Of a DNA stretch of 64,000 nucleotides, positions 9,011-29,793 are shown one piece after another. A program made the position numbers and the translations under genes. Each line of letters starts with the position of its first letter. The first letter of the stretch is position 1. Source of the stretch: a virus; IMG/VR virus record IMGVR_UViG_3300025941_000018, positions 1-64,000 of that record; one strand, written 5' to 3'. A model generated the notes under the pieces. The model was given only the letters and a program-made list of their open reading frames with translations. It was not told the origin of the DNA and made no database searches.

Positions 9011-9018
9011 GTCGGCTT

Positions 9019-9311
9019 GAACCATTGCCGTTCAGCGGTGAGAAATGGACGCGAGGGTCGGCAATGGATTGCGGTACTCGGGAACTGATTACTACCGCAC
9101 ACGTGGGCGCGAATGGGCCAGAGCGTGATTCAGCAGCCTTATACCCAAGGTTGAATAGTCTAGCCCCACCGCTCAAGGTCAAATTTTCGAGCGGAGCCAA
9201 AAGCGAAGCGAAGCGACCGACGGGCTTTCGTCAGAGCAGAGGCAGTAGCGCGTCCCTTAGGGGGCGCTCTGCCTTTTGCTCGCTCTCTCCCTCTAAGCTT
9301 TCATCAGTACA
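9019..9311 (+). repeat. 293-bp structured repeat, copy 1 (candidate ncRNA or origin)
   Basis: Direct repeat of 29501-29793 with 5 mismatches; many hairpins. Confidence 0.95.
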
Positions 9312-9350
9312 GGGCAGGATCGGAGAAGATCCCAGTACAGGAGCAACCCT

Positions 9351-9824
9351 ATGATCCAACCCGAATTGCTAAACCCTCCTCAAAAGTCCAATCCGCCCAA
9401 ATGGACCATCCGAATTTGGTTCGATGGTGGTTGCTCGCCCAACCCAGGCAACAAGTACGGCAGTTACGAAGTTGAGGCTTACGAGGAACTCGTACTTTCA
9501 AAGGTTCGATTCGGACTCGGACACGGGACAAATAACGAAGCAGAGTTCGAGGCGTTAGAGGCTGCTTTGATGGCGACTATCGCTTATCTCTCGGTGATTC
9601 ACACCCCGACGCCGGAAAACCGCGTGGTGATCTTCACCGACTCAATGATTTTACGAAACCGCCTGATGGGCAAGAACAGGATTTTCAAGAAGGCGAAGCA
9701 CGCGGAGAGCAGTGGTCGAATGTACCGCAAGGCCGCTCGCATTTTGGAATTGCTTGCAGTCTTCCACTCCTTCGAGGTCATATGGAGAAACCGCGAAACC
9801 AACGTCGCCAGGTTCGGACACTGA
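9351..9824 (+). CDS. rnhA: ribonuclease H (RNase HI family)
   Basis: WFDGGCSPNPG, GTNNEAEFEAL, IFTDS, WRNRETN motifs. Confidence 0.9.
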   Translation: MIQPELLNPPQKSNPPKWTIRIWFDGGCSPNPGNKYGSYEVEAYEELVLSKVRFGLGHGTNNEAEFEALEAALMATIAYLSVIHTPTPENRVVIFTDSMILRNRLMGKNRIFKKAKHAESSGRMYRKAARILELLAVFHSFEVIWRNRETNVARFGH

Positions 9825-9848
9825 ATTTATGAAAACGAAAGGCATTTC

Positions 9849-10661
9849 CTGAAAATCGCAAACGTTACGTACCTGCCGCCTCCCCGCTACGGTTGCGCGA
9901 AAGTCTTCGTGGATAACCTGCGCCGTTACCCGAGCAAATACCCGATGGTCGCTTACTCTGAGCATGACTGGGACTGGCCGGGACTCATAAAGCTGAAGGC
10001 TGACCCAGAGGAAGTGAAAAGCAGAGCGCCGAAATTGCAAAACGGAGAGCCAAATCAATTTGCAATTAACAACGTTCTTTGGCTGGTCGGTTTGCGTTTC
10101 GCGCGCGAGATGGGTTACACGCATGTCCTTTATCTGGAAAGCGACTGTCGCGTCGGTGTTAAGCATTGGGATGAGAAGGTCTTTGACGAATACTTCTCGA
10201 TTGGCCGGCCGCTCATCGCTGGCGGAAATATCGCCTGCTATAACCCGTGCAACTCGACCGCCCTTGGTTCAAAACGATGGGAAGAACTTGTGACACAAAA
10301 CAACAAACGGCGAAATGTGCCAATACCCACGTATGGCTGGCTTCCGGCAGCGACCAAAGCGCCGTCCTGCGTGTTCGTGAATGGCGCTCTGGCTATATAT
10401 AGCATCGCGTGGATGGAACAGCTTTTTGAGCATCTTGAAGACTGTACACGTCAGGCGTATGCGCCTAGCCCATTTGATATGGGGTTAGGCGTCAAGCTAT
10501 GGGATATTTTTCAGGAGGATTCATATGAAGTGCTAGGCCACTTAACTAGCGTGTTCAGTGGATTCGGAGACATAATGACGACCGAGGAGGAGCGCTTAGA
10601 CATGGTCCGCTCGGGCGAATGTGTAGGTTGCCACCAGGTCAAATCAGACGCGACCGTATGA
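9849..10661 (+). CDS. glycosyltransferase-like protein (GT-A fold)
   Basis: HVLYLESDC acidic motif, NGALAIY, FDM, terminal HQVK; start uncertain (CTG 9849 or GTG 9909). Confidence 0.6.
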   Translation: MKIANVTYLPPPRYGCAKVFVDNLRRYPSKYPMVAYSEHDWDWPGLIKLKADPEEVKSRAPKLQNGEPNQFAINNVLWLVGLRFAREMGYTHVLYLESDCRVGVKHWDEKVFDEYFSIGRPLIAGGNIACYNPCNSTALGSKRWEELVTQNNKRRNVPIPTYGWLPAATKAPSCVFVNGALAIYSIAWMEQLFEHLEDCTRQAYAPSPFDMGLGVKLWDIFQEDSYEVLGHLTSVFSGFGDIMTTEEERLDMVRSGECVGCHQVKSDATV

Positions 10662-10752
10662 CCTTCTCCGACACAATGCAGATCACGAGCATCGTGGTTG
10701 CCTTCGCCGCCTCCGTGCGGCTGTTCTGGCGATGGTATTGGAGGCGCTAACT

Positions 10753-11034
10753 ATGCCCGATTATCACATGACTAGAAAAGCTGAGCTTGCGATGGAAGCC
10801 AGCTTTCGGAACGACCGTGAGTCGCATGAACTTTTGGATTTGATAGACCGAGAATTTCGCACCGACCCAACCAGTGTCCAATGTTTCGACCGTCGTATCG
10901 TTGAGCGGGTGGCGCTGTGCGTGGCGCGAAGGAAGGCGTATCTAAAAGCGGTCGCGCACTTGGTCCTCGACGCGATGCGCAAAGACATGGCCAAGATGAG
11001 GACGGCAACTTTGAACACACCTACTGAACAATGA
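10753..11034 (+). CDS. hypothetical protein
   Basis: ORF in operon; EFRTDPTSVQCFDRRIVER. Confidence 0.55.
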   Translation: MPDYHMTRKAELAMEASFRNDRESHELLDLIDREFRTDPTSVQCFDRRIVERVALCVARRKAYLKAVAHLVLDAMRKDMAKMRTATLNTPTEQ

Positions 11035-11300
11035 GCGTAAAATATATCGAACCGAACCCTGATAACTTCAGCACACGCACCAAGCGGCATTTCTGGGCCA
11101 TCACCGAGCAGTGGACAGTCGTAGAAGTGGCTGGCTACTCTACTCAGCAGCCGACAATGTGGTGGGTGCCAAGCCTGGGATTCACTATGAGCATCGGTCA
11201 CCATCTATTTGACGGGGAACAGGACGCACGCCGACGGGCGCGCGCGGACCTTACGGCAAGGATTAGCGAGCTGCAACTTGCCCTCCTGAATCTCAAGTGA
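11031..11300 (+). CDS. hypothetical protein (89 aa)
   Basis: ATGA coupling. Confidence 0.6.
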   Translation: MSVKYIEPNPDNFSTRTKRHFWAITEQWTVVEVAGYSTQQPTMWWVPSLGFTMSIGHHLFDGEQDARRRARADLTARISELQLALLNLK

Positions 11301-11342
11301 ATGCTGCCCACCGCGAAGCAACCATTAACACTATCCAATAAC

Positions 11343-11699
11343 ATGAAGACGAAAAGAAAGAAACGCAGATGGACAAAAGCCGACGAAATGAAGGCGGAGA
11401 TAGACACGCTCAAAGCCGAATTGACAATCGTGCGTAGGCGCTACAAAGAGACCTGCGAGCAAGAGTCGGCAGAGCGCAGCAGAGTCTATAGCCTTACTGA
11501 GAAGTACAGTCTGATCAAGCGGGTCATGGGAGATTTACTTCTACAATCTCATCGGTGCGCGACTTACAAACCTTTAGAAAAGTTGGCTGAGACACCCCGG
11601 ATGCGAATCGCCGTTATCGGCACGTCTGGATTGGTTTGCGTCTGGATTGACGACCGGCCAGTGTCAGAAATGAAAGCCGACGACGCCCAGGAACTGTGA
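11343..11699 (+). CDS. hypothetical coiled-coil protein
   Basis: ORF overlapping the recombinase start (GTGA). Confidence 0.55.
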   Translation: MKTKRKKRRWTKADEMKAEIDTLKAELTIVRRRYKETCEQESAERSRVYSLTEKYSLIKRVMGDLLLQSHRCATYKPLEKLAETPRMRIAVIGTSGLVCVWIDDRPVSEMKADDAQEL

Positions 11700-12619
11700 A
11701 ATTCGACGCCGCATTCGACAAGTGGCTTGCCGCCAACGACGCCGGGATGTCGGAGGGCTCGCGCTCTGCCTACACGTTCGCTGTCCGCAGGTTCGCCGCG
11801 TTCTGCAAAGCGCATCGCCTGCAGGTCGAAGACGTTCACAAACGGCACATCGCGGCTTACATGGCTGAGGCGACTGACGAGATCAAGGGCTGGACCGTTA
11901 TGGGCCAGGTGAAGCTTTTGAAACGGGTTTTCGAGTGGGCAGTGGCTGAAGGTCTGGCAGAGACAAACCCCGTCCAATTGAAGTCGCTGCCCAAGCTAGT
12001 CCGCCATCGAGCCGATCGCACGGCCTTCACCGCCGATGATTACGCGGCCATCATGGAGCACGTCGGCGCGGCTAAGCCCTACTGGCGGCTTGCCTGTGCG
12101 CTTGCCTGGCACACCGGGCTACGCATGGTGGACGTGGCAAATTTGCAGTGGGAGCATGTGGACTTTTCGGTGCGCGTGCTGAGCGTCAAGCCAATTAAAC
12201 TTCAGCGCTTCGGACAGCAGCTCGAAATTCCAATGGCCGACGAACTGTATGAGGCGCTCATCCAACGGCACACTGAGAGCACGACCGAGGAACCGGGCGA
12301 GTACGTCCAGCCCGACATGATGATGGCCTACAAATACGGCCGCACTCGGTTAGTTGAGCAGTTCGAACAACTGCGGAAGCGCGCGGGTTTGAGCGGCGGC
12401 AGCTTTCACTCGTTCCGGCACGCAGTGGCCACGAGGCTAATAAATGCAGGCGCTGATTCCTTGGTTGTCGCCTCAATTACAGGGCATAGCCTGAAGCAAC
12501 TGAAGGAATACACTCACGTTTCAATGGAAGCCAAAAGGAACGCCTTCAGCATAGCGCAAAAAGTATTGACCCCGCCTTTCAGAAATGAGAATCTTCGCAC
12601 GGCCCTAGAACGGCTGTAA
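11696..12619 (+). CDS. tyrosine recombinase/integrase (XerC/D-like)
   Basis: HTGLR, FHSFRH, ITGH and EYTH catalytic motifs; N-terminal core-binding domain. Confidence 0.92.
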   Translation: MKFDAAFDKWLAANDAGMSEGSRSAYTFAVRRFAAFCKAHRLQVEDVHKRHIAAYMAEATDEIKGWTVMGQVKLLKRVFEWAVAEGLAETNPVQLKSLPKLVRHRADRTAFTADDYAAIMEHVGAAKPYWRLACALAWHTGLRMVDVANLQWEHVDFSVRVLSVKPIKLQRFGQQLEIPMADELYEALIQRHTESTTEEPGEYVQPDMMMAYKYGRTRLVEQFEQLRKRAGLSGGSFHSFRHAVATRLINAGADSLVVASITGHSLKQLKEYTHVSMEAKRNAFSIAQKVLTPPFRNENLRTALERL

Positions 12620-12712
12620 AAACAGATGCGAATAAGATTCTCCATCTCCCTTCACGGTTGCCGCCAAGTCTGTGCGGGTTCTACTTCACGGTCGGGGGAT
12701 GGCTTTTCTGTT

Positions 12713-13450
12713 ATGTCAAACGCAAAACACGCACGGAAGTACTATTGGAGCCATCGGGAGGAGGTCCTGAGGCGGGCTGTAGAGTATCGCAAGAATAACT
12801 TGGAGAAATTTCGCCTCCGACATGCAGCAAACCACCTGAAGCACAAAGCTAAAAATAACGCCTATTCCGCGAGGTACTTAGCTGAGCATCGCGAAGCGAT
12901 TAACGCCCGTAAACGCAGGTATTACGCGTCGAACAAAGAGAGAATATTACGAGCGAGAGCAGAGGAGAGGATTAATAACTTGGATGCTTTTCGCGCACAC
13001 GGCAGGGCGAAATACTGGAAAAACCCGGAAAAAGGCAGGATAGCGTGTGCCGCCTACGCCAAGAAGTATCCAGAAAAATGTGTCGCTAGGGTTGCAAAAC
13101 GTCGGGCTCGCATGGCCGCCGTAAGAACGTCAGAGGACGCGGCAACACTAATCTTTCGCTTAAAAAATCAGGCAAAAAAGATCCGATGCCACTGGTGTGG
13201 ACGCCGATTAACTTCCTCCACTCTGGAAATCGACCATATCATTCCAATTTCCAAAGGCGGGGCTCACGAGGCTGACAACTTGTGCGCAAGTTGCAAATCG
13301 TGCAACACTAGCAAGGGAGACAGGGCTTTGAAGGACTGGCACAAAAAAGGCCAGCAAATACTCCCATTAGAGCCCTCTGGTTCAACCGCCATGGGCAACA
13401 CAATTTCGCCAGTTCCAGTTGGAAACGCACAAGGCAACCAATGTTTCTAA
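12713..13450 (+). CDS. HNH homing endonuclease
   Basis: Basic repeats then CHWC...EIDHIIPISKGG...NLCASCKSCNTSKG; ATG at 12713 after a structured leader. Confidence 0.9.
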   Translation: MSNAKHARKYYWSHREEVLRRAVEYRKNNLEKFRLRHAANHLKHKAKNNAYSARYLAEHREAINARKRRYYASNKERILRARAEERINNLDAFRAHGRAKYWKNPEKGRIACAAYAKKYPEKCVARVAKRRARMAAVRTSEDAATLIFRLKNQAKKIRCHWCGRRLTSSTLEIDHIIPISKGGAHEADNLCASCKSCNTSKGDRALKDWHKKGQQILPLEPSGSTAMGNTISPVPVGNAQGNQCF

Positions 13451-13508
13451 TTTCACGGGCTGCTTTGTCGCTGCTCGCCGGTTGGCGGGCGCTGGCGATT
13501 CCGAATTT

Positions 13509-13817
13509 ATGAGTTTGAAATATCACGGCAGATTTGGCGACGGATTGCTCTATACGCTTGGGGAGACTCGAATAATTCTATCCGGCCCAAAGGAACGTGA
13601 AGCGATTGGCTGGCATTTCAGCATTTCATGCCCCGACAGGAACCCAACTTGGGAGGAACAGAAAAAAGCCAGATACGAACTTTGCCCGGACGACCTCTAC
13701 ATGGTCCAGATCATGCCGCCCAAGAAAGAGTACGTGGCCGTTCACGAATTCACATTTCATTGGCATGAGGCTGGACCTAAGTTTTTCGACGTTAAAACCG
13801 GAAGGCCATTAGGGTGA
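13509..13817 (+). CDS. conserved phage protein
   Basis: WHFSISCPDRNPTWEE...HEFTFHWHE family motif; ATG at 13509. Confidence 0.7.
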   Translation: MSLKYHGRFGDGLLYTLGETRIILSGPKEREAIGWHFSISCPDRNPTWEEQKKARYELCPDDLYMVQIMPPKKEYVAVHEFTFHWHEAGPKFFDVKTGRPLG

Positions 13818-13845
13818 AACCACCACACCACCCAGAAGCAGGATT

Positions 13846-14718
13846 ATGAAAATGCTTCTTGACCTTTCGGCACTCCCTTGGCAGCATCGTCTCGCTTTGC
13901 AGGACTCCGAGACATCTAAGGATTTGTCGCCCTCTCCGGGGGAATCTTCGCTTGTCGAGGCGTCCGCAAAGCACCCGGAGGGCGGCGATATTAAGCGTCA
14001 AATCCATTTGCGGAAGAAAGCGGCGCGGATGCGGGCCTGGAGGTTGAGAAACCCTGAAGTAATGAAGGCAAGAAACCGCAAGTGGTACGCTGAAAATAAG
14101 GAGTGCATTTCAAACAAGGCGCGACTGAGATATGCGGCAAACCCATCTGTTAAAATATCGAACAACAGGGACTACTATCGACGCAATCGAGAAAAAGTTA
14201 ACGCTTACAACAAAAGGCTTGTCGAAAGAATCAAGCGAGAGCAGCCCGAGCGCTACGCCGCGTGGCTGCGCAAGACATACGAAAACGCCAAGCCAGGCTT
14301 AGTGGAGTATAGACGCCGTCCAGAAATTAAGGCACGCCACCGCGTTGAGAGCAGGCGGTGGGAAGCGGCAAATCCAGAAAAGCGGAGAGCAATGAATCGC
14401 TCTTGGGTTGAAAGAAACAAAGAAAAAGTAGCCGCAGATCGCAAAGCTCGAAAGGCGCTACCAGAGGACAGGCCAGGGGTTGATGAATTTCTTCGAAAAG
14501 TTTTTAGCAGGCGATTTATAAAATGCTACTATTGCCAACGAAGGACCAGCACGAAGGCGGTTCACGTTGACCATATTGTGCCGAGAAGCAAGGGAGGAAA
14601 AACAAAAGCCGATAACCTTTGTGCCGCCTGTCCAGACTGTAACCTTTCCAAGCACGCAGCGCTAATTCCAGATTGGCAGAAACGCCGCGACCACTCGCAG
14701 CAAATCTTGCACTTATGA
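13846..14718 (+). CDS. HNH homing endonuclease (paralogue of 12713)
   Basis: CYYC...HVDHIVPRSKGG...NLCAACPDCNLSK; true start probably downstream of the 13859-13990 leader. Confidence 0.9.
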   Translation: MKMLLDLSALPWQHRLALQDSETSKDLSPSPGESSLVEASAKHPEGGDIKRQIHLRKKAARMRAWRLRNPEVMKARNRKWYAENKECISNKARLRYAANPSVKISNNRDYYRRNREKVNAYNKRLVERIKREQPERYAAWLRKTYENAKPGLVEYRRRPEIKARHRVESRRWEAANPEKRRAMNRSWVERNKEKVAADRKARKALPEDRPGVDEFLRKVFSRRFIKCYYCQRRTSTKAVHVDHIVPRSKGGKTKADNLCAACPDCNLSKHAALIPDWQKRRDHSQQILHL

Positions 14719-15365
14719 AAATATTTTCCTTCTATGGCGATGTCCCGGAACTGCCACGCGGAGACGAATTACGTTTAACTATCTTATGGCGCGAGAAATG
14801 GAAATCTGCCGGCTGGGAGCCGGTCATTTTGTCTGAGTGGCAAGCCCGACAGCATCCACACTTTGAAGAATACGATGCGGCAATTTCAAAGTTGCCGTCG
14901 TGCAATCCGCCAATTTATGAAAAATTCTGCTTCTATAGATGGATCGCTCTCGCCCAAGTTGGCGGTGGCTGGCTTGCCGATTATGATCTTTTTGCGACAC
15001 CCAACGGAAACCCACTTTGGCACCGACTAACCGGTGCAGAGATGAACAAAGTCATCATCATGCAGCAACCATGCTGCCCATGCCTTGTGTGGTGTAGCGC
15101 CGACAACGCGATTCGTCTCTGTCGTGAGTTTGCGAAAGGCATCGGCAATAATCCCCAGGACGCACGCGCTCATTTTTCTGATCAGTATTCCCTTGAACGT
15201 CTGGTGCTCGACGGTGCCGACTGGATCGAAGTGCGCAACGTGGTGAAGCAGTATCCAGATGAAGGCTGCAAGGATGCTCCTTTAATCCACTACCCTAATG
15301 CCGCCCTTGGACCTCGAAACCTCACCCCGAAATGGCGCCACATTCCGAAGCTCCTACCACTATGA
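14715..15365 (+). CDS. glycosyltransferase (DxD sugar-binding type)
   Basis: CFYRWIALAQVGGGWLADYD, FSDQY, LIHY motifs. Confidence 0.75.
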   Translation: MKIFSFYGDVPELPRGDELRLTILWREKWKSAGWEPVILSEWQARQHPHFEEYDAAISKLPSCNPPIYEKFCFYRWIALAQVGGGWLADYDLFATPNGNPLWHRLTGAEMNKVIIMQQPCCPCLVWCSADNAIRLCREFAKGIGNNPQDARAHFSDQYSLERLVLDGADWIEVRNVVKQYPDEGCKDAPLIHYPNAALGPRNLTPKWRHIPKLLPL

Positions 15366-15607
15366 AGTTCAACAAACACGACAACGTCAGCCCGGCGGCC
15401 CGAGCGCATCAGGCAAAGCGCAAAGCCGAATTTCACGCCGTCCACAAACACATCGGCACCAAGAACGCGCTTTACTGGAACATGCGCGTGCGCGGCTGGT
15501 GGACCAAAGCTGTCCTGAAGGCGCGAGGTCCTGCTGTCCCGACATCGCTTCGAGAGGCGGCTGAGTTTGCCCTGGCGCAGGCGCTTGAACAGCGGAGGGC
15601 GCGATGA
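15362..15607 (+). CDS. hypothetical basic protein
   Basis: ATGA-coupled on both sides. Confidence 0.5.
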   Translation: MKFNKHDNVSPAARAHQAKRKAEFHAVHKHIGTKNALYWNMRVRGWWTKAVLKARGPAVPTSLREAAEFALAQALEQRRAR

Positions 15608-16290: not shown

Positions 16291-16480
16291 ACCTTTGCCA
16301 TGCCCAATCTGCGGAAAGCCGCCGCGCACACGCAACCCATTCGGCACCCATTTGTTCGAGGTCCTGTGCGACGACGGGCATAAAGAATGGTGCTGCTTCT
16401 CCATCCTCACGATGGAAGACGCGATTGAGCTTTGGAATAGTGAGTGCGAAATTGCTACTCAGGAAAGAAAGCTATTATGA
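16283..16480 (+). CDS. Lar-like restriction-alleviation Zn-finger protein
   Basis: PLPCPICG...EVLC...EDAIELWN; GTG at 16283. Confidence 0.6.
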   Translation: MVEPLPCPICGKPPRTRNPFGTHLFEVLCDDGHKEWCCFSILTMEDAIELWNSECEIATQERKLL

Positions 16481-17112: not shown

Positions 17113-17115
17113 CCT

Positions 17116-17364
17116 ATGATAGACGCCGATGACGAATTTCGATACGCGCAACTCGATATCCTTGAGGTCGTGCAGCGCAAACTAGCAATCATCAATGCCC
17201 AGCGGAACGAAATCATGGAAGCCTTTATAGCCAAGCATGGCTTCGACGCGGACGAGGCAGTCCAAGTCGTTCAGCGGATGCGTGATGGAAGCGAGAAGTT
17301 CTTTATTCGCAAGCGCACGCCAGAGGAAATGGAAATGCTCAATAGGCTTAGTTCAGAATTATGA
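17116..17364 (+). CDS. hypothetical protein (82 aa)
   Basis: Operon context. Confidence 0.6.
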   Translation: MIDADDEFRYAQLDILEVVQRKLAIINAQRNEIMEAFIAKHGFDADEAVQVVQRMRDGSEKFFIRKRTPEEMEMLNRLSSEL

Positions 17365-19337: not shown

Positions 19338-19648
19338 TACAACTCCAAAACGACACCAAGATCCGCTTCGTAAACGCCGTCGATGCGCTGCTTACCCATG
19401 CCCGCGAGTGTGAAGCTTGCACCGAATACATGCAGACCGGAGAGGGCGACCTTTGCGACTGGGCCAAAATCAGCCTTGCTCACGAGATGGCTTTCGCCGA
19501 CATGAAGCCGATCATCGACGAGAACTTCGTCTTACTCCCCGACGCGGCGACAGGCCCCTGCCCGCCCGCATCGTTGTCAGAGAGCGTCCTACCATCCGCG
19601 GTGACAACCCTCGCCGAGAACCCACACGGGCACCTCGACTACGAGTAA
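19334..19648 (+). CDS. hypothetical protein; 3' end overlaps the giant gene antisense
   Basis: ATGA coupling; HARECEAC motif. Confidence 0.5.
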   Translation: MIQLQNDTKIRFVNAVDALLTHARECEACTEYMQTGEGDLCDWAKISLAHEMAFADMKPIIDENFVLLPDAATGPCPPASLSESVLPSAVTTLAENPHGHLDYE

Positions 19649-22600
19649 GGCCGCCGCCTAGTCCGCCGCCCAAGGTTGTCCCGCGTGATGCTGTGGCCAG
19701 CCTGGGAGTGCCTGAAGCCCCGCCAGGCCCACCCACAGCCGGTGCCACAGCCGCACGGCTTGCCGCAGGCGCTCCGCCGCCGCCTATAGATGCCACACTA
19801 ACCCCAACCGACTCCAAAGCGTCTTGATTCGCCCGCTGGAACGCTTTAGCGACGGCGACCTTGTCACTGCCATCCAATCCTTGAAGTTCCTGCTTGAAAT
19901 TCACCCCTCGCTGCACCGTGTAATCTTGTAACTCCTGATTCGTCATCGGCCTGAAATCGTTGCCGATGGCGTAGCCCTTATTTGGATTGATGGACGGTGG
20001 TCGATAGCCGCTTTCAAACACTGCCACGTAGGGTGCCTCTTCCAGTTGCGCTTTCACCGGCAGGGGATACGTGCCTGACAGCATCGTCTGGACGTAGTTC
20101 TGAACGGCATCAGGAGTGCCCACAGGGTCGCCCATGAAGTTGACTGCCTTGTGCCCGCTGGTTGGAAGCGCGACCAGGAAGTCCATGAATGTCGCCTGTC
20201 GAGGATCGAGATGCACGCCGACCGCCCGCATCTGTTCTTGCCAGCCAGGGAGCCCGGGGACCACGGGGCTGATATACGACGCCGCGAGCTTGGTCGGACT
20301 GAAGCTGCCTGCCTCCGTGAACGACTGCGCGGCACCGGTCAGGGTCTTGCCGGACATCAGCAGAGCCAGCGCCGATTCGGCCGCAACTTGGAAGCGCTCC
20401 ATGGTAGTAGGAGGCGGGATTTTGCCAGGGGTAAGACCCTTCTTCTCTGCCTCTTGGTTCATGGCGGTCTGCTGCTGTGTGCGCCGCTCAATCAAATCCT
20501 TTGCTGCCTGCGCGCCGCCGGCATAGGGAGCCAGGAAAGTGCCGACGCCAACCGTCGTGCTCAGTCGGTAAACATGGTTGTCGCCCAGGTTGATCTCGAT
20601 GGTTCCCCATTTGTGGCCTGCCTTCTCAGCCAAGTCACGTTCAGCACGATCCATCGGTGGCCGGCCAAAATATTTCATCAGGTTGTTGAACACGGCCCAA
20701 ACTGCGATTGCGCCAAAAGCGGTGCCAAGCAAGGCTTGAAAACGGCGCTGCCAAACGTCCTCCTCGGTGGTGAAATAAGGCGACGGTTCAGCCCCGCGTG
20801 GCCGCATGTTAGCCATCGCGTACAGCGGCGTGTTCATAAACGCCCAGTTGATGCCGGTGCCGATGGCATTCGAGAACTGGGTAAAGAACCCCGGCAGCCC
20901 GGCGCCGCGCAACATGCTTTGCGCGTACTTCAGCGGCACGGTAACCAGCGCGCCCGGGCCAGTCTTCACCGGTTCCTGCCATGCGGACAGCCGTTTGAGC
21001 AGGTCGGCGCGCTTCTGGAACTCATCGGCGGGCAAATGGGCCATCCGAATCTCGTCATACATGCGGCTGAGAACGAGCGCCGATGCCCGCTCGACCAGTT
21101 CAGCCTCAGTCAGCGTCTCGCCAGCGGCTGCCGCTATCCTGCGAGCATCGGCCAGGGCGGCATCTCGCTTCGCCGGCAGTCCCTTGAACACCCTGTCGCG
21201 AATCACTAATCGGTCAGCCAGCAGAAAGCCCTTCTGGATGAGGCTCGAATCGACAAGGTTGGACATTTCAGTCATCTCGACCGCCGTACCCTGCCAGGCA
21301 TCCATGGCGCGGATGAAGTGCAAAGACCACTTCACGAGTCCCAGGAAGCGCAGTGCCCCGGCCTGAGCAGTCTTGCCTTGGGCATCCAATTCCTTAGCCT
21401 TGAGTTCCATCCGCTCGAAAGCCTGAACTCCGGACATCAAACGCTCGACGTTTCGGGTCTCGCCGCGATTGAGCAATCCTGCCCTGAACGCCAGCAGCCC
21501 TGGCTTAATGGCATCCACGGTCTCTTTGAACCCTTGGACCATCGTGCGCCCGAGGTCTCCCCATGCCTGCCCGATGGACTCTTCGCCGCGCTCCACCCTT
21601 GCTGCCACGAATCCCGCAGCCCGACTCGGAACGTGCATCAAGAACTGTGTTGCCATGTGGAGTGGTAGCCGGAAGCCGAACCCGGTCTTGAGCAGCAGAT
21701 TGGCAATCTCGAACTCGTTGGTCGCCGCAGCGATGTTCTGCCGTGTAGCCCAGAACTTCGACCATTTGATGGGCTGCGTGAGCCGTGCCCAGCGTGCCGC
21801 TAATTCCCGGTTGGCTGCCCCGATCTTCCCTTCCATGGTCACCATGCGCTCACGGCGGGCCTTCTCGACGTCGCCACCAGCGTCTTTGATTTCTTCCGGG
21901 GTAGGTTCGGCCAGCCGCTGGGCTCGCTCGCTCAACTCCCGCATGATGCGGATCTCCGCTGGGCTGGGTGGCGTGTAGCCGTTGGCCTTCGCAATCTCGG
22001 CGATGATGGTCGTCGGATCGGCACCACCAGCATTGAACATTCGATGCAGTTTCTCGACCACATTGCGCCTGCGCATCTGTTTGCGCTCCTGTGGCGTCAG
22101 AGCGTCGATAGCCTGCTTTCCAGCCGCTGCCAGCGCTTTGGTCATCGGGAGCTTAAACGCCGCCTGGAACATCGCCTTGACCTTGTCCACCTGCGCTGGG
22201 TCGATGCTCAGATCGCGGACCATGTGGTCGGCAAACCTCTCAGCCAGCTCGTCCTGGCGGTAAAACGGGGTTTCCAGCACTTGCTTGGTCAAACTGCTGA
22301 CATTTGGCACCAACCGCTGAACCACGCCCTTAGCCGCCACATTGTCAATCATGGGCGTGTCGATGCCACCGGCGCGGATGATGCCTTCCAGCTTGCCTTT
22401 GGCCTCATCAAGCCGCTTGGCGCGCGCCTCCGGGGTGATCGGCGCCACGTCGAAGGTGCGATCTGCACCCTTCAGGAAGCTTCGGGTAATCCGTTCTTCC
22501 GCTGCCTGCAGCCGTTCGGCCAGGTAGGTCCAGGTCACGGCTTCCAGATACGTGCGGGTTGGCTCATCTAAGGCGTTGAACTTCTCGGCCGTAGCGATTT

Positions 22601-25600
22601 CCTCACTCTTGCGCTCAATCCATTGCTGCTTTTCAGCCCTTGTCGAGGTTGCCAGGCTTTCCAATTCCTTAGCCGACACGTATTTCGAATCGACGCTGCG
22701 AATCAGACGGCGCGTTCGGTCGGTCTGGAAGCGTGGGTCTCGCGACACCCCGGCGTTAATCAGCCCGCGCAGACGCTCGGATGCCGTCTTAGGCACGTTC
22801 GCCTTCGGGTCGAAGAAATTATCCACGACTCGCTGCTGGGCTTTCTTCAATTGGGCGAGCATCTGCTGCTCGATGGCGTTGTAAACCCGAAGCTTGGTCT
22901 CCGGAGATGCAGCGGACATATCCACCACAGCCTCGATATTATCCATGAAAGCACCCATCACGCGGGCTTTCTCTTCATCCTCGGACTTCGCCAGCTTCAC
23001 CAAGTCAATGCGGGTGTCAGCGGGCTTGACCTTGGGGTCCTCGAACTTCGTGCCTTTGAAATGTTCACTAAGCACCTGCCGCACGAGCCGCATGGTTGTC
23101 GGGTTGTAGCCAAGGTCTTCGCCAATCTTCTCCCAGTGCGCGTACTTCGGCAGCTTCATACCTTCGTCGATGAACTGCTGTGGCGGCATCACACGCTCAT
23201 TGCCTGGTCCTGCCAGGTCGATTTCCGTCAGCATGTCCTCAAGGGCGGCCTTGCGCTCCGGGTCTTTCTCGCTGGTCGCGTACTTCTTCAGGATGACACG
23301 GCCCGCATTCCACTGCGCTTCTTCCAACGCCCATTCGAGGGATTGCCCAATCGCATCAGCGGTCTTCGGATCGAGCATCAAATGGAGTTCTTCCATCGCC
23401 GTCAACTTGGTCTTGCCTGGACGCGGCTTTGGCTCAATGCCGTATTTGGCTTTCAGCCGCTCGAGTACCTTGTCGTAAGCCTCATTCTCTTTGCTCTTGA
23501 GCGCGAGTTGTTCTGGGGTCAATGGTTGCTTGGGTGCCAATGCTCGCTGCAAGCGTCGGTACAACCTGCCGCCTTGGTCCTGAGCACTCAGCCGAATCAG
23601 TGTATTGATGAATGTCCTCGCGTCGGGATGGCCATTAAGCGCGTCCTCGATCTCTTTGGGCGTGAACAGATCGCGGAAATGGGTCAGCGCCCGCTCAATC
23701 ACTTTGCGGATGCCGTCGCCATTGAATGCCTGCGAAAACTCTTTGTGCAGATACACGTCCACGTTGCGGCCAATCACGTCCAGCCCGGGCTTGAGGCGGG
23801 AGAGGGCCGACAGCGCGGCGCCCACGCTGCTAATCTCGCCCTGAGCCACGGCAAATAAATCATCGCGCAGTCCGGTCGGTAGTGTTGCCATCGCTGAGCC
23901 CGGCACGTTGCTGTAGTTTAGGCGCACGGAATTGAGCAGGTGCATCAGCAACCCATTAGCCTTCCCGGGTTCATTCTGCGCTCGAATCTCAGCCTTCATC
24001 CGTTCCAGCAGCTTCTCGAATTGCTCCCGTTGATCCTCGCCACTGGCGTCAAACCGATAGACTTCCTTCTCCATCTTGCCCGTCTCGGGGTCCATGACGG
24101 CAGTATCGGTGAACGGGATCTTAAGCGAGTCCAGCACGGTCTTGCTGAAATCCTTCATTGTGGCGATCTGCGCAGCGGTCTGTCGGCTGAGCACGCCGAA
24201 GTCCGTGCCCATGACCTTCGTCTCCGTGTATGGGCTTGGCGGCTCTTCTTCGCTCGGGCCGAGAGACGCCATCAATCGCTCGTGCTCAAACTGATTGCCG
24301 CTCTCCGGTGTGGTATCAAATCGCCCAGCCATCACCGCATCGAGCACATCGTTCTGCCGCGGCCGCATTCGCAGGGCTTTGCGAAGTGCCGACAGGAATT
24401 GCTGCCAAATCGCTTTGACCCTGGCCCAGAAGCCCTCGACGACAGAGCCAGCCTTTTGCTCAAACCTGTCGCTGAACGAGTGCGCGAAATATTCTTCGTC
24501 GTTCGAATGGTGATATAGCAGCTTCTCGTAACGCTTCGGATAGTTGCGGGACAAGAAGTCCTTGGTGTCCACCGTCGGATTGTCGCGCAGGTCAGTTAGC
24601 GCAGCGGTCAGTTCGGCGTTGCCCTCATTCTCTTTCAGTAAGACCTCAATGCTCGCCAACTTGAGCCTGTTTATCTCTGCCCGAATGTCTTCTGGAAGGA
24701 CGTTCTGGTAAAGCCAGTGCGCAAATTCATGTGGCAGAGTCTTCGGGTCGGCGGTTCGACCGAACTGAATCAGATTTTGAAGTGTACTTCCAGCGTATCC
24801 GTTCTCCACTGCGTCAGTGATGACAACTCGAACACCTTCGAAATCTTTCGCAACGGGCAAATCCAGCAGCGCATTCGCCAGCCTGACAACTTGCGGAGAT
24901 AACCCCGCGTCCTTGGCGTTGATCGCCGTGCGCAACTCTTCGACGGTGCGGGCTTCGACGGGCTGACGCTCGCGCAACGGCGAAGTCAACTCTTCCGTCG
25001 GAGTGCTGGCCATTGCGCCAGGTTCGCGCATCGCAGGCGTGATGGCGATAGCGTGAACCGGAGTCGTTATCGGCACTCCGATTTGCTGCATGGCTTTTTC
25101 AGCATCAGCCCTGCTCGAAAACTGCGAGGACAGTTGCTCTCGCACCCCGTCGGGGGTTCTTCCGTAAACAACCCAAAATCCTTGGAACGAACCCGGCTCA
25201 ACTTTGAGGTCGGTCATCCCTTCTCCTTCGCGCTCGCCAACCGAAATGCCCTGCGTTCCAACCTTCACCCCCGCCTTCTTCACCGGAGCCAGATTGTTGA
25301 CGACGTTGGGTAGGTCTTGGTCGTAGAGTTTTTTGAGGCCAGCGCCACCGACTCTAAGATCCAGACCGGTGAAGTCCTGTTGCTCTCTGCCGTCTCTGGC
25401 AGCGGCAGCGGCCTTCTCGCCAAGTTCTTTGCCGATGTAATCGGACAGTTTGTCTGCGGAAATTCCAGAGGCAATCTCATACCAGTTGCCCTCGGTTTCG
25501 TGACCCACGCGCCTGACGGAAACGTCCACTTTCTTTCCGTCGCCTGAAATATTCTCGACGCGGATAGCCGACACATGCTTGCTGAGATCATATCGTTCCG

Positions 25601-28600
25601 CTTGTTGAGTCCCCGTCGTCCAACCAACTGCTTCAAACCCATTCTCTGCCGCATGACGTAAAGCCCAACGCATCGCAATCTCGCGCCAGTGCTTTTGAAA
25701 CAGGGCGGGCATCTTCTCGAACTCGCCTTTTTGAGGGGGTTGGACCTCCTCAAGAAAAAGCATTCGCTTGCCGTCTGCCGCGGCACGTTCGTTATAGCGG
25801 AGGCGAACGATGGGATTTGGAATGGCGGCGTACTGCGAGTGGCCGTCGCGCCAGCCGGGCTTTCCCGTGATGGATTGAATTGCATCCTGCTCCGTCGCTC
25901 CGCTGCCTCTATTTAGACCGCTTTGACCCCTGACGATCCATAATCCCCTGCCGTCTGCCGTCTCGACCTTTTCAAGCGTGAATCCTTTCGGAAGGGCTTG
26001 CGGTGTTTTTACTTCCGGCACGGTCAACAGTACTTCGCGATAGCTGCCCTCCTTTGCGCCAGGGAGTGTGTATTGGGAGAAGTGGGTGTCGGTTGTCACT
26101 GGCCCCATCTCGACCTCGGCGCGATCAGCGTCTATGTTCTGTAAAGCTTCGGTTTCATCGTAATGCCCCGGAGCTGATCCGACGTAATTCCCATCAACGA
26201 AACCAACCCAGTCCTCTGGCTTGTGCCAGTCGTGTCCGGGTATCTGCGACTGCTCGTCCGGAGTGAGTGAACCGAATCGACGCAGTTGCGCGGCAAACTT
26301 TTTCTGTCCCAACGTCACATCCTTCACTTGAATCTCATTCGCCTTGAGATAATCCAGCACGTCGGTCTTGGTGTAGGTCTTACCGTCCTCCAAACCATCG
26401 ACGCGCATCAATGCCCATTCGTCTTTGAGCACACCAGGACGATTGCGCAGTTCAGCTTTCCACTGTGCGCCGGTTGCTTTGCCTGTGCGACTGGCCATCG
26501 CCTGCTTGAGAATGTCGCCCAGCGCGGCTTTCTCGCCTTCTGTCGGTGGTTCTTCGGCGGCTGGTGTCGGCGCTTCCGGCTCTGGCTTGGTTGGTTCAAT
26601 CTTTGGTTTCAGGTCGGGGTAGTCCGCGAGAACTTCTGCGGGCACGTCCTTACCTTCGCTTAGGGCTTGTTGAACGGCGAGCTTGTGGCTCTGCGCTTCG
26701 CCCGCCATTGTGAGTTCTTCGTTTTTCACAATGCCAGCCCGCATCCCGGCTCGATTCACACGATCAAAAGCTCTGGCGTTCGCGGCCTTTATCCAGTCGC
26801 GGCCTTTCTGCGTTTTGGCTTTTAGGTTCGATCCGCCCTTTACCTTCTTGGCCTCAAGGTCTCCCGATTTAATAAGGGCTTCTGACTCAGATCGCAGGGT
26901 TTCTCGAAGTTCTGATTCAGTCTCAACTTGCGGGCCTGCGTCCGTTCGCGGAAAACGTGCTTGGTAATCTGATTTCGTCATCTGCCATGGCTCTTTGGAC
27001 GGTTCGACGTTGGGCGTGACAGGCGCACTCACAACCTCCTTTCCAATGTCCGAAAGGTCGGCTGCTGCTGGTGGCATCGGCTTCTGCGCGGGTGGAGGCG
27101 GCACTTGGCTGACAATCGTTTCGCCAGGATAAAGGCTCGCTGTTGACCATGCTCCATCTTTCACACGGCTAATCATCGGCGGCACACCGGGCACCTGCTC
27201 CCAGTAGCCACCGAATGCGGCTTGGTAGGTCGAACCGTCGGGCCGTTGGATGGTGACTGCGGTGTGGTTTGGTGGCAGTGGCGGGATGCTGGCCGCGCCT
27301 GAAATCTCTGTTATTTGTGCTTTTGGAATTACGTCCGAGTAATTGATTCTCGCAAGCCTTTGTTGAACGATCTTACCGTCATCGAGGAACACATCCAATT
27401 GGGCGGGGTGATTAAACATCGCCCTGCCACCGGCGTTATGTTTTTCTGGGCGCAGTCTCGCTATGTAGTTCTTTCCGCCGGAGGAAAACTTCATTGCGTG
27501 TGTGTATTGACCCTCGTCGCCCACTTCGGTCGAAAGCACGTATGGGTCGGATTCAATTGTCCGCTTAATGTCGGCTCTAAACACCGGATTGTCCGACATT
27601 GAAGCCAGAGCTTTCTGCCGATTTGACAGAGGCTTTGGTGGTGCGGGAACTACCGTCGGCTGGGTCGGCGCTTGGGTGACTGGCGAGATTTCTGGCGTGG
27701 CTTCGGGCGCGACGACAGGCGGCGTCCCTTGACCACCTTGCCCACTTTCTCTGGCAGGCTGCGGTACGACACTGGGGCTTCCTTCTGCCACTTGTGCAGC
27801 AGGTCCGGGCGGTTGACCGCCGCCCACTTCCACTGGTGCTTGCTCTTGATTGGCATTTGGTCCTTGATTTAAGAGGCGCGTGGCCTCGGGTTGAACTGTC
27901 GGCACTGCTGACGGTTGGGCTACTGCCGTGGCCTGACCTTCTGGCGTCACTTCGACCGTGCGTTTACGGCCGCCTTTGATGCCCAGCATCTGCGCAAGTT
28001 TCTCAGGCCAGCCTTGCTCGACAATGTTGACGCCTTTTGTGCGGGCCTCTTTGATATTGCCAGGACCGCCGCCAACCTGTCGGCCAAGTTGGTCGTTGAT
28101 CATCTGGACAAGATCCTTCTCTGACTGTGTGGCCGATTCATCACCGCGTTGGACTCGCGTGTAAATGTCTCGTAGTTCTTCGGGCGAATAACTCTCGATC
28201 ACCTTGCGAGTTGCTAGCGTGTCGGCATTGCGTTCGACCCACGCGCGAGTCTTGCTCGGCACTTTCTTGCTGAATCTGCCGATGCCAAGCAGGGAGAAAC
28301 CCAAGTTTGTGCCGATGATCTCAGCCAAGTGCAAAGCCGCGCCCTGCGGGTCGGACTTCATCTGCGCCAGCAGTTCCGGAGTCTGGGTTGCTGTCATGTA
28401 GCCATCGAGCGCTACCTGTTCGCCGATTGTTTCCAGCACCTTCTGCGCCGTCGCATTGATCGGTGCGGCCCCGCCTTTCGCCAGCGTCTTGCCAATCGCC
28501 GCGGCGACCGCCGTCTTTCCGACCAGCCCAACGCCTGGCAGCAGGGACGCGATCAGCGCCTCCTTTGGATGGAAATTCCCCTCGTCGTCTATGCCGAACA

Positions 28601-29243
28601 ATCCGCCAGCGGCAATTGACTGCGCGATCAACCCCTCGGGAGCCACGGCGAGCAACGCGAAGTTTGGCGCGGCCTTGGCCAAACTGAGGGCTGTGGCGCC
28701 CATCGCCGTTGCAACTGGAAATTCGCCACGGTCTTTTTGCTCCTGGGCTGAGGCTTGTACGGCCTGCTCGACTGGCAGCGGTTCTTCTAACGGTGCCGCG
28801 ATATTCGCCTTCGTCAGATTCGGTGCCGTCGCGGTGCTTGGCCGCATGACATTGGCGATGTCGCCGAGTCCACCCATGACCGCTTTACCAGCCAGCCGCC
28901 GCGTCTCCGTGAAACTCAATGGCCGCGCATTCGGGGCTTCCGTCCCGCGTATGTCCGATTTATCCGGTGGCTCTGGTGGCGGCGGGTTCGACTCCCAACT
29001 GCTGCTAACGGGCGGGATGAAGGCTGTCGGGGTTGGGGATGGCCGCGATGAAACCCTTGCTTTGACTGGCGCTGGCGTCTCAACCGGGGTGCCGATGTCG
29101 CTAAGGTCGAACGGGTCTGGCGCTTTGGCTGTTGGCACCGGCGTCCCAATATCGCTCAAATCCGTGGGCTGCATCTCGCGCCTGGGAGCAGGCAAAACCT
29201 CAGTGCCAATGTCGCTCAGGTCCGTTTCGTCCATTACTGCCAT
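19512..29243 (-). CDS. giant internal/ejected virion protein (3243 aa, polyvalent-protein-like)
   Basis: Last gene of the structural operon; HEFAH zincin motif; LFLEEVQ/YREVLL domain; PWQMT...VPAEVLADYPDL module; DLSDIG repeats. Confidence 0.85.
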   Translation of the reverse strand: MAVMDETDLSDIGTEVLPAPRREMQPTDLSDIGTPVPTAKAPDPFDLSDIGTPVETPAPVKARVSSRPSPTPTAFIPPVSSSWESNPPPPEPPDKSDIRGTEAPNARPLSFTETRRLAGKAVMGGLGDIANVMRPSTATAPNLTKANIAAPLEEPLPVEQAVQASAQEQKDRGEFPVATAMGATALSLAKAAPNFALLAVAPEGLIAQSIAAGGLFGIDDEGNFHPKEALIASLLPGVGLVGKTAVAAAIGKTLAKGGAAPINATAQKVLETIGEQVALDGYMTATQTPELLAQMKSDPQGAALHLAEIIGTNLGFSLLGIGRFSKKVPSKTRAWVERNADTLATRKVIESYSPEELRDIYTRVQRGDESATQSEKDLVQMINDQLGRQVGGGPGNIKEARTKGVNIVEQGWPEKLAQMLGIKGGRKRTVEVTPEGQATAVAQPSAVPTVQPEATRLLNQGPNANQEQAPVEVGGGQPPGPAAQVAEGSPSVVPQPARESGQGGQGTPPVVAPEATPEISPVTQAPTQPTVVPAPPKPLSNRQKALASMSDNPVFRADIKRTIESDPYVLSTEVGDEGQYTHAMKFSSGGKNYIARLRPEKHNAGGRAMFNHPAQLDVFLDDGKIVQQRLARINYSDVIPKAQITEISGAASIPPLPPNHTAVTIQRPDGSTYQAAFGGYWEQVPGVPPMISRVKDGAWSTASLYPGETIVSQVPPPPAQKPMPPAAADLSDIGKEVVSAPVTPNVEPSKEPWQMTKSDYQARFPRTDAGPQVETESELRETLRSESEALIKSGDLEAKKVKGGSNLKAKTQKGRDWIKAANARAFDRVNRAGMRAGIVKNEELTMAGEAQSHKLAVQQALSEGKDVPAEVLADYPDLKPKIEPTKPEPEAPTPAAEEPPTEGEKAALGDILKQAMASRTGKATGAQWKAELRNRPGVLKDEWALMRVDGLEDGKTYTKTDVLDYLKANEIQVKDVTLGQKKFAAQLRRFGSLTPDEQSQIPGHDWHKPEDWVGFVDGNYVGSAPGHYDETEALQNIDADRAEVEMGPVTTDTHFSQYTLPGAKEGSYREVLLTVPEVKTPQALPKGFTLEKVETADGRGLWIVRGQSGLNRGSGATEQDAIQSITGKPGWRDGHSQYAAIPNPIVRLRYNERAAADGKRMLFLEEVQPPQKGEFEKMPALFQKHWREIAMRWALRHAAENGFEAVGWTTGTQQAERYDLSKHVSAIRVENISGDGKKVDVSVRRVGHETEGNWYEIASGISADKLSDYIGKELGEKAAAAARDGREQQDFTGLDLRVGGAGLKKLYDQDLPNVVNNLAPVKKAGVKVGTQGISVGEREGEGMTDLKVEPGSFQGFWVVYGRTPDGVREQLSSQFSSRADAEKAMQQIGVPITTPVHAIAITPAMREPGAMASTPTEELTSPLRERQPVEARTVEELRTAINAKDAGLSPQVVRLANALLDLPVAKDFEGVRVVITDAVENGYAGSTLQNLIQFGRTADPKTLPHEFAHWLYQNVLPEDIRAEINRLKLASIEVLLKENEGNAELTAALTDLRDNPTVDTKDFLSRNYPKRYEKLLYHHSNDEEYFAHSFSDRFEQKAGSVVEGFWARVKAIWQQFLSALRKALRMRPRQNDVLDAVMAGRFDTTPESGNQFEHERLMASLGPSEEEPPSPYTETKVMGTDFGVLSRQTAAQIATMKDFSKTVLDSLKIPFTDTAVMDPETGKMEKEVYRFDASGEDQREQFEKLLERMKAEIRAQNEPGKANGLLMHLLNSVRLNYSNVPGSAMATLPTGLRDDLFAVAQGEISSVGAALSALSRLKPGLDVIGRNVDVYLHKEFSQAFNGDGIRKVIERALTHFRDLFTPKEIEDALNGHPDARTFINTLIRLSAQDQGGRLYRRLQRALAPKQPLTPEQLALKSKENEAYDKVLERLKAKYGIEPKPRPGKTKLTAMEELHLMLDPKTADAIGQSLEWALEEAQWNAGRVILKKYATSEKDPERKAALEDMLTEIDLAGPGNERVMPPQQFIDEGMKLPKYAHWEKIGEDLGYNPTTMRLVRQVLSEHFKGTKFEDPKVKPADTRIDLVKLAKSEDEEKARVMGAFMDNIEAVVDMSAASPETKLRVYNAIEQQMLAQLKKAQQRVVDNFFDPKANVPKTASERLRGLINAGVSRDPRFQTDRTRRLIRSVDSKYVSAKELESLATSTRAEKQQWIERKSEEIATAEKFNALDEPTRTYLEAVTWTYLAERLQAAEERITRSFLKGADRTFDVAPITPEARAKRLDEAKGKLEGIIRAGGIDTPMIDNVAAKGVVQRLVPNVSSLTKQVLETPFYRQDELAERFADHMVRDLSIDPAQVDKVKAMFQAAFKLPMTKALAAAGKQAIDALTPQERKQMRRRNVVEKLHRMFNAGGADPTTIIAEIAKANGYTPPSPAEIRIMRELSERAQRLAEPTPEEIKDAGGDVEKARRERMVTMEGKIGAANRELAARWARLTQPIKWSKFWATRQNIAAATNEFEIANLLLKTGFGFRLPLHMATQFLMHVPSRAAGFVAARVERGEESIGQAWGDLGRTMVQGFKETVDAIKPGLLAFRAGLLNRGETRNVERLMSGVQAFERMELKAKELDAQGKTAQAGALRFLGLVKWSLHFIRAMDAWQGTAVEMTEMSNLVDSSLIQKGFLLADRLVIRDRVFKGLPAKRDAALADARRIAAAAGETLTEAELVERASALVLSRMYDEIRMAHLPADEFQKRADLLKRLSAWQEPVKTGPGALVTVPLKYAQSMLRGAGLPGFFTQFSNAIGTGINWAFMNTPLYAMANMRPRGAEPSPYFTTEEDVWQRRFQALLGTAFGAIAVWAVFNNLMKYFGRPPMDRAERDLAEKAGHKWGTIEINLGDNHVYRLSTTVGVGTFLAPYAGGAQAAKDLIERRTQQQTAMNQEAEKKGLTPGKIPPPTTMERFQVAAESALALLMSGKTLTGAAQSFTEAGSFSPTKLAASYISPVVPGLPGWQEQMRAVGVHLDPRQATFMDFLVALPTSGHKAVNFMGDPVGTPDAVQNYVQTMLSGTYPLPVKAQLEEAPYVAVFESGYRPPSINPNKGYAIGNDFRPMTNQELQDYTVQRGVNFKQELQGLDGSDKVAVAKAFQRANQDALESVGVSVASIGGGGAPAASRAAVAPAVGGPGGASGTPRLATASRGTTLGGGLGGGLTRSRGARVGSRRGLSPRMVGRSLTTMRAGRGLSPRRGVRRSSRR

Positions 29244-29290
29244 TCCCGCTTATAGCACCCAATGACGAATGTTCCAAAGAAAGAAATTCT

Positions 29291-29495
29291 TTGACAGTAG
29301 GCGCGAGACGTGGAAAAGTCGAAATGTTCAGGCGACTGACGCCAATACAAATGCAAACCAAAGCTCAATTTAGACTCCACTGGCCATCCGGTCCAAGGTC
29401 GTCTGAACAATGCCCTACCATGCGTTTGTGTGGGGGCCGGACCCATCGGATCTAACCGAGGCGGATTAAACCCCGTCCTCGGTCATTTTCTTTTT
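29291..29495 (+). promoter_or_regulatory. promoter plus alternative-pairing leader plus terminator-like hairpin
   Basis: TTGACA-N17-AAAAGT; 29325-29336 pairs with 29398-29409; 29387-29394 pairs with 29434-29441; hairpin 29455-29483 followed by a T-rich run. Confidence 0.55.
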
Positions 29496-29500
29496 CGCCC

Positions 29501-29793
29501 GAACCGTTGCCGTTCAGCGGTGAGAAATGGACGCGAGGGTCGGCAATGGATTGCGGTACTCGGGAACTGATTACTACCGCACACGTGGGCGCGAATGGGC
29601 CAGAGCGTGATTCAGCAGCCTTATACCCAAGGCTGAATAGTCTAGCCCCACCGCTCAAGGTCAAATTTTCGAGCGGAGCCAAAAGCGAAGCGAAGCGACC
29701 GACGGGCTTTCGTAAGAGCAGAGGCAGTAGCGCGTCCCTTAGGGGGCGCTCTGCCTTTTGCTCGCTCTCTCCCTCAAGGCTTTCATCAGTACA
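29501..29793 (+). repeat. 293-bp structured repeat, copy 2
   Basis: Direct repeat of 9019-9311; intergenic and antisense to the late operon. Confidence 0.95.

Follow-up and report, generated by a model that had tools for sequence, protein, structure and literature searches.

We analysed a 64,000-nt window of phage DNA, the first 64 kb of the 75,295-bp IMG/VR virus record IMGVR_UViG_3300025941_000018, in which a 293-bp sequence occurs twice in the same orientation, at 9019-9311 (copy 1) and 29501-29793 (copy 2). Both MAFFT alignment and a repeat finder confirmed the original observation that two direct copies lie 20,482 bp apart and differ at exactly five positions (9024 A/G, 9151 T/C, 9232 C/A, 9294 T/A and 9296 A/G), which corresponds to an identity of 98.3%. 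No third copy was found anywhere in the 75,295-bp record, either by BLASTN with 7-nt words or by six-frame TBLASTN.

The flanks of the repeat had been described as unrelated. This held for the upstream sequence compared at the fixed offset, where identity is at the random level (23% for 8800-8877 and 29% for 8897-8976), but not for the flanks as a whole, since a short box, a TTGACW hexamer, the position of a first terminator (T1) and a set of tail repeats are common to both copies. Because these features outside the 293-bp repeat, hereafter the core, recur at the same 20,482-bp offset, the sequence points to a longer homologous unit of about 450-530 bp (about 8811-9341 and 29291-29817) whose conservation is mosaic.

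Layout and setting of the two units

Both units can be read on the plus strand in the same order, namely TTGACW as a -35-like element, the box, a leader of ~90 nt, T1, a core body of ~215 nt, a second terminator (T2) and a tail. The promoter-like sites are TTGACT-17 nt-CATTGT in copy 1 (8811-8839, plus strand), which overlaps the end of the DUF6283 gene, and TTGACA-17 nt-AAAAGT in copy 2 (29291-29319, plus strand), which is 2 nt off the repeat register; the hexamer that follows each TTGACW 17 nt on is only weakly -10-like. The 13-nt box CAATTTAGAYTCC is present in both copies with a 12/13 match (CAATTTAGATTCC at 8884-8896 and CAATTTAGACTCC at 29366-29378, both on the plus strand), in exact register, 135 nt upstream of the core (P 0.0002 from shuffles). 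Leader 1 (8890-8973, plus strand) is predicted to fold as a closing stem around two hairpins, with hairpin B at 8938-8953, and leader 2 (29372-29453, plus strand), unrelated to it in sequence, has the same predicted shape, with hairpin B at 29418-29433.

As originally proposed, a terminator made of a hairpin and a T-run stands before each core. T1 is a 10-bp stem followed by ATTTTTCC in copy 1 (8977-9008, plus strand; -16.5 kcal/mol, z -4.1) and a bulged 10-bp stem followed by CATTTTCTTTT in copy 2 (29455-29494, plus strand; -17.2 kcal/mol, z -4.4), and the ends of the two stems lie within 1 nt of the same register at only 33% identity. The plus-strand core of copy 1 contains helices at 9022-9067, 9070-9099, 9115-9166 (enclosing 9134-9153) and 9169-9194, a GCGAA tract at 9203-9216, and T2, a long 3' hairpin whose 3' arm contains or is followed by a U4 run (9234-9281; -34 kcal/mol, z -5.0). 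The core of copy 2, also read on the plus strand, includes T2 at 29716-29763 and is antisense to the surrounding minus-strand genes. In the tail of copy 1 (9305-9341, plus strand) CAGTACAGG occurs twice, the second repeat holding AGGAG, the Shine-Dalgarno sequence of RNase H; the tail of copy 2 (29787-29817, plus strand) carries CAGTACAAG and AAGTACAGG, is 6 nt shorter and has no start codon after it. The occurrences of CAGTACAGG in the two tails make up four of its eight near-matches in the 64 kb.

The borders of the core are uneven. On the left, the 4 nt before it differ (GCTT in copy 1 and GCCC in copy 2), and on the right identity decays gradually, with mismatches at 9294, 9296, 9312 and 9316 and an ungapped tail identity of 33%. 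These features weaken the suggestion of a non-autonomous mobile element, since homology extends past both ends of the 293 bp, the right border is poorly defined, and the copies have no terminal inverted repeats, common target or transposase. TnpA and TnpB are absent from the genome: PF07282 had no match, and PF01385 had only a 15-bit match, broken by stop codons and located elsewhere. A protein language-model look-up returned OrfB_IS605 fragments as the nearest clusters with a score of 0.78, which is the chance level. Reverse transcriptase (PF00078) had no match in the genome either, so the sign expected of a retron or a diversity-generating retroelement is missing.

The two copies lie in opposite gene contexts, as had been stated. 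Copy 1 occupies a 529-bp gap (gap 1) between the DUF6283 gene (8084-8821, plus strand) and the RNase H gene that it directly precedes (9351-9824, plus strand; Pfam RNase_H E 1.9e-6, PHROG 531). Copy 2 occupies a 590-bp gap (gap 2) between open reading frames (ORFs) of 434 amino acids (aa; 29834-31138) and 3243 aa (19512-29243), both on the minus strand, and is therefore antisense within minus-strand genes. The 3243-aa ORF has typical codon usage (score 0.278) and matched no Pfam or PHROG family; an early reading of it as a virion RNA polymerase of an N4-like phage was dropped in view of this lack of a match. Its N-terminus carries the motif DLSDIGT three times within the first 60 residues.

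Further observations concern the neighbourhood of copy 1. The DUF6283 domain is confined to residues 120-228 of the longest ORF at 8084-8821, homologues measure 134-170 aa, and the ORF has a flat GC profile across codon positions along its entire length; for these reasons the true start of the gene is probably well downstream of 8084. Further left, a 364-bp gap at 6652-7015 separates the left minus-strand ORFs from the plus-strand operon leading to copy 1. It is likely a divergent control region, and no repressor gene was recognised.

The genome carries at least three free-standing HNH endonucleases, a terminase and a DnaB helicase, together with a single integrase, a tyrosine integrase at 11696-12619 (plus strand; Phage_integrase E 1.5e-23) that lies inside the 20.5-kb block bracketed by the repeats and on whose presence we would class the phage as temperate-like. 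No attP was identified. Directly 3' of the integrase are two HNH endonuclease genes (12626-13450 and 13846-14718), and an HNH_3 gene lies at genome position 73391-73954. The replication module (68.8-71.2 kb) is outside the window and is marked by a DnaB-type replicative helicase at genome position 69766-71154 (plus strand; E 1.6e-57). Two features elsewhere in the window are a strong minus-strand terminator at 44035-44175 (CCCTCGCC...GGCGAGGG then T6), which is 3' of a 650-aa ORF (44176-46128) and is followed by a 288-aa ORF (43168-44034) with no Pfam match, and a family of 41-nt direct repeats in three copies (38992-39032, 61953-61993 and 62096-62136) that are 78-100% identical.

That the repeat is real is indicated by several sources. 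Gene callers placed ORFs on both copies on the record from two sources, the Joint Genome Institute (JGI) and European Nucleotide Archive (ENA) assemblies, and the ORF that runs through leader 1, core and tail 1 is likewise recorded from two sources. In an unrelated soil run from 2025, contigs join copy 2 to its own left and right flanks; they end inside the repeat, none bridging it whole, and the same sample shows a sixth variant, 9101 A>G. Because the ORFs of both copies are recorded from JGI and ENA and the flanks of copy 2 are seen in an independent run, an assembly artefact is unlikely. The DNA sequencing runs that hold the phage are soil, root and rhizosphere metagenomes, with no RNA run among the holders listed, and runs with a small share hold either the same phage or unrelated short matches.

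These data also bear on the idea that the repeats are junctions, either of a 20.5-kb block (9.3-29.5 kb, with the only integrase) that entered by recombination or of two circular molecules that share the repeat and were merged in one contig. In its favour, the integrase, two HNH genes and the giant 3243-aa ORF all lie between these direct repeats, and the contigs of the independent run do stop within the repeat. We nevertheless regard a junction as very improbable, given the record of leader 1, core and tail 1 in one ORF from two sources, the full in-register leader in each copy (unexpected for a displaced att fragment), the lack of a composition break at the repeats, and the 2.4 kb between the integrase and the nearer repeat.

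Predicted RNA structure of the leaders and the core

Leader 1 together with T1 (8890-9012) has a predicted folding energy of -55.3 kcal/mol, and none of the 404 length-matched genomic windows tested (mean z -0.07, standard deviation 1.09) is as low as its z of -4.85 to -5.0. Leader 2 reaches z -2.6 to -3.0, and only 1.5% of the windows reach -3. On the minus strand both leaders score about -1.8 to -2.0, and T-runs of the terminators are found on the plus strand only, where few terminator-like sites in 1-40 kb are as strong as T1 and T2. The minimum-energy folds of both leaders have the level-5 shape [[][]][], that is, a closing stem round two hairpins and then the terminator, a shape taken by 7% of shuffles and of genomic windows. 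Six pairs of hairpin B survive two double changes and one wobble change (CUCCGC/GUGGAG against CCAUGC/GUGUGG). When the 45 nt after the promoter-like site are included, a long-range helix forms onto the hairpin-B region, of 18 bp in copy 1 and 11 bp in copy 2, and these models give hints of alternative leader folds.

The core is less uniformly structured than the original description of almost continuous stems implied. The stems that it named exist, but only helix 1 (9022-9067, z -3.4) and the T2 hairpin (z -5.0) stand out as significant. The claim that the substitutions at 9024 and 9151 exchange Watson-Crick for G-U pairs on the plus strand was borne out by the helix positions, as A9024 pairs with U9065 in a 9-bp helix (9022-9030/9059-9067) and G9136 pairs with U or C9151 in a 7-bp helix (9134-9140/9147-9153), so that both core substitutions located in stems keep pairing via G-U.

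The position of T1 is also informative for another early candidate, an RNA-primed, ColE1-like R-loop replication origin whose primer would be processed by the adjacent RNase H. RNase H does lie directly after copy 1, the GCGAA tract at 9203-9216 is purine-rich, and the ~450 nt from the promoter-like site to T2 recall the length of ColE1 RNA II. We find such an origin hardly credible all the same: in both copies T1 stands between the promoter-like site and the core and would stop most transcripts, copy 2 has no adjoining RNase H, the DnaB helicase module is far away, and cumulative GC skew has no turning point at either copy.

Coding potential and origin of the repeat

Between the stop of DUF6283 and the start of RNase H, gap 1 is open throughout in one plus-strand frame of 178 codons (8818-9354). 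This frame overlaps the upstream gene at GTGA and RNase H at ATGA, as is typical of coupled genes, and any open plus-strand frame in gap 1 arises in only 0.76% of dinucleotide shuffles (P 0.0076). In both copies GAGGG is placed 6 nt before an ATG at 9064/29546, and in copy 1 there is also the GTG overlapping the upstream stop, contrary to the remark that neither copy has a good start. Together with the gene-caller predictions, and with the observation, repeated in our comparison, that in one frame three of the five differences are synonymous and two conservative, this argues for an orphan protein gene, of which copy 1 would encode 178 aa (or 96 aa from the ATG at 9064) in coupling with its neighbours and copy 2 a partial paralogue of 154 aa. 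The earlier caveat that a coding role could not be dismissed was therefore fair, the frame being more open than it stated, but every other coding test that gave a result failed, and we consider the orphan gene quite improbable.

Specifically, the frame has a codon score of -0.08 to -0.19, where windows of real genes average 0.255 in frame, with a 1st percentile of 0.00. Its GC by codon position is flat (0.54/0.58/0.53), while in real genes of this genome the second position is clearly lower (giant gene 0.64/0.46/0.66, RNase H 0.51/0.41/0.65). The frame products matched no Pfam or PHROG family even at E 10, and among 5.8 billion clustered proteins and 1.84 billion representatives they matched only themselves, apart from four weak matches (E 1e-5 to 7e-4, in 4-9 short stretches) that we read as low-complexity noise. 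In leader 2 the frame is broken by a stop, and the peptides of the two leaders are not related to each other save for QFR, which is encoded by the box. The frame contains two terminator hairpins with their T-runs, its C-terminal ends differ between the copies, and in copy 2 it would run 177 nt into the 434-aa gene on the opposite strand. The variant 9101 A>G would change His to Arg, and the three synonymous changes among the six known substitutions are not significant (~0.17 by our own binomial estimate). A single-sequence AlphaFold2 run gave a mean predicted local distance difference test (pLDDT) value of 38.5, a low-confidence fold that is weak evidence and uninformative either way. On the minus strand, an ORF in the core was discarded as a stop interrupts it in copy 1, leaving it open only in copy 2, and so were two ORFs in gap 2 (70 and 76 aa) with poor codon scores.

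The homologue check that had been proposed, with BLASTN and Rfam covariance models, returned neither a homologue nor a family. In the window none of the 4227 Rfam models matched at gathering score and no match at E up to 10 was convincing, the best sub-threshold matches on either unit reaching 17-23 bits against cut-offs of 60-80; ARAGORN found no tRNA or transfer-messenger RNA gene in it. BLASTN with words of 11 bases found nothing similar to the unit in 50,697 phage records, and no exact 20-mer of the element was found in viral contigs. Six peptide windows of the frame gave pattern matches in metagenome, viral and genome contigs, none of them confirmed, and the box pattern had one chance match among viral contigs, in an AT-rich phage.

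Other genes of the phage gave no close relative either. Relatives of the RNase H are 43-46% identical and come from AT-rich phages without synteny; no relative was found for the N-terminus of the giant ORF; the 434-aa ORF had no GenBank phage match and found only itself among the 5.8 billion clustered proteins; and the best match of the DUF6283 neighbour was 56% over half the protein. The best terminase match was 61%, on a 13-kb contig, the next being 39% in a metagenome-assembled genome, and the unit is missing from five terminase-related records. By sequence, then, the phage appears to have no close relative in the collections searched.

In T4-type phages, promoter-early stem-loops (PeSLs) are small intergenic composites of a terminator stem-loop and a promoter that are repeated in one genome and can drive homologous exchange (PMC2839356, PMC4122927). 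The present unit could likewise be a selfish or recombination-prone promoter-terminator cassette that was copied to a second site, has no RNA function of its own and offers 293 bp of homology for module shuffling or deletion. The unit combines terminator-like with promoter-like parts: the terminators are clear, and of a promoter there is a -35-like hexamer with a weak -10. Free-standing HNH genes are plentiful in the genome, and the contrast between cores (98.3%) and leaders (29%) or ungapped tail (33%) suggests recent copying or conversion.

We think this explanation unlikely. PeSLs are small and numerous and flank variable ORFs, while here there are only two copies of ~0.5 kb, about ten times the size of a PeSL, with a long invariant core. 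Leader shape, box and T1 are kept in register despite the divergence, which argues for selection on function. The copies also lack terminal inverted repeats and a shared target (GCTT against GCCC), and nothing similar was found in the viral, metagenome and genome collections. Finally, Smith-Waterman comparison of the leaders with the whole genome, including the regions upstream of HNH genes, gave no similarity above the shuffle level.

A candidate regulatory RNA and its known counterparts

We tentatively prefer to read the repeat as a duplicated plus-strand regulatory RNA/terminator module whose core has been homogenised by gene conversion, and would put the chance of this a little short of even. 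The undescribed phage non-coding RNA is, on the sequence, the best supported of the three candidates first listed, given the strand-specific terminators, the stable leaders of the same shape, the wobble-preserving changes and the failed coding tests. It is an unproven reading: the searches gave no homologue on which covariation could be tested, and with a single lineage at hand the finding is a well-delimited candidate rather than a discovery.

Several results weigh against this preference. The open frame of gap 1, with its overlaps at both ends and its low P value, is what a coupled gene would look like. The 286-nt core fold as a whole is only slightly more stable than that of shuffled sequence and not significant (z -1.89 on the plus strand and -1.73 on the minus strand), and covariation rests on two sequences with three to six substitutions and no homologues. 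A strict in-register consensus fold of the two leaders is poor (-5.5) and reaches -27 only after a 2-nt shift, for which reason the models suggest that their similarity is architectural and not column by column. Neither promoter-like site passes a sigma-70 consensus scan, at odds with the initial claim that each copy follows a promoter of its own, and gene conversion is assumed. Transcription of the module and its regulatory logic, like that conversion, we infer from the arrangement of the parts.

In the regulatory-module reading, the two units would be old paralogues, the core being kept at 98.3% by gene conversion or recent re-copying while the leaders diverged in sequence under structural constraint and kept their predicted fold. 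The module would be transcribed on the plus strand, and would either release a structured RNA or work as a regulated double terminator. The first helix of the core body would bury the GAGGG-ATG, T2 would act as a very stable hairpin-U4 element, and the tail would supply two CAGTACAGG repeats. Copy 1 may gate read-through from the genes at 7016-8821 into the block that runs from RNase H to the integrase, and the RNA of copy 2 may be antisense to the untranslated spacer that precedes the 3243-aa gene. Since the cores are the same, transcripts of copy 1 would also be complementary to that spacer.

A bolder version goes further, with one 260-nt core RNA made from two loci under two different 'sensor' leaders. 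With copy 1 sense in a plus-strand operon and copy 2 antisense in the virion operon, the copy 1 RNA would serve as a ~290-nt trans antisense to the giant-gene spacer. Duplication would in this way have produced a timing switch, and the core would have evolved in concert in order to stay complementary. We regard this as a long shot.

If transcription proceeds as predicted, the module would constitute a new regulatory RNA of a phage, unusual in that a leader of variable sequence and constant shape is joined to an invariant core in two opposite contexts. It would add to the few cases in which the timing of phage genes is set by RNA rather than by protein, and would provide a natural example of paralogous RNA loci held identical by gene conversion. 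Should it be only a recombination cassette, the repeats would still mark a 20.5-kb block liable to be deleted or exchanged, together with the integrase and the giant gene that it contains.

Among known systems, the miniature elements of the IS200/IS605 family and the TnpB omega-RNA share with the repeat hairpins near both ends, the same orientation and the lack of terminal inverted repeats, but here the genome has no TnpA or TnpB, the copies have no shared left target, the right border is fuzzy and homology extends beyond the repeat. In pyrBI and pyrE attenuation an open frame runs through an intrinsic terminator and a close-following ribosome can suppress termination. Like these leaders, the frame of copy 1 is coupled to an upstream gene and crosses T1 and T2, and translation through the terminators in this manner is one possibility that would account for the open frame; unlike them, copy 2 has its frame interrupted by a stop and lacks an upstream gene, and no nucleotide-sensing pause tract was identified.

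Small terminated transcripts that oppose or modulate an operon, as that of copy 2 would do, include lambda OOP, P22 sar, P1/P7 C4, P4 CI and the putative small RNAs of the N4-like phage LUZ7. All of these are single-locus and much shorter, and have no sense copy in another operon. Intergenic small RNAs, and transcripts that run antisense to late genes and are proposed to delay late expression, have been reported for LUZ7 and LIT1, both N4-like (PMC9163698); by analogy they make the antisense scheme plausible, and they are not evidence for the present case.

Parallels in layout are also found in temperate phages. The 6S RNA of the lambda pR'-tR' region with its qut site and the putL and putR sites of HK022 are short structured leaders that follow a promoter, and in units of the lambda and HK022 type an intrinsic terminator comes next. 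HK022 carries two put copies per genome whose stem-loops are kept; a put-type antiterminator RNA has two stem-loops downstream of a promoter and makes RNA polymerase resistant to terminators. The units described here differ from these in having no sequence or model match to them, in leading to a 293-nt near-identical core with a second terminator, in that one copy opposes the surrounding operon, and in that no Q-like or N-like gene was identified. They share with them a structured leader downstream of a promoter-like site, followed by an intrinsic terminator, in a temperate-like phage, and both leaders are predicted to form two hairpins inside a closing stem.

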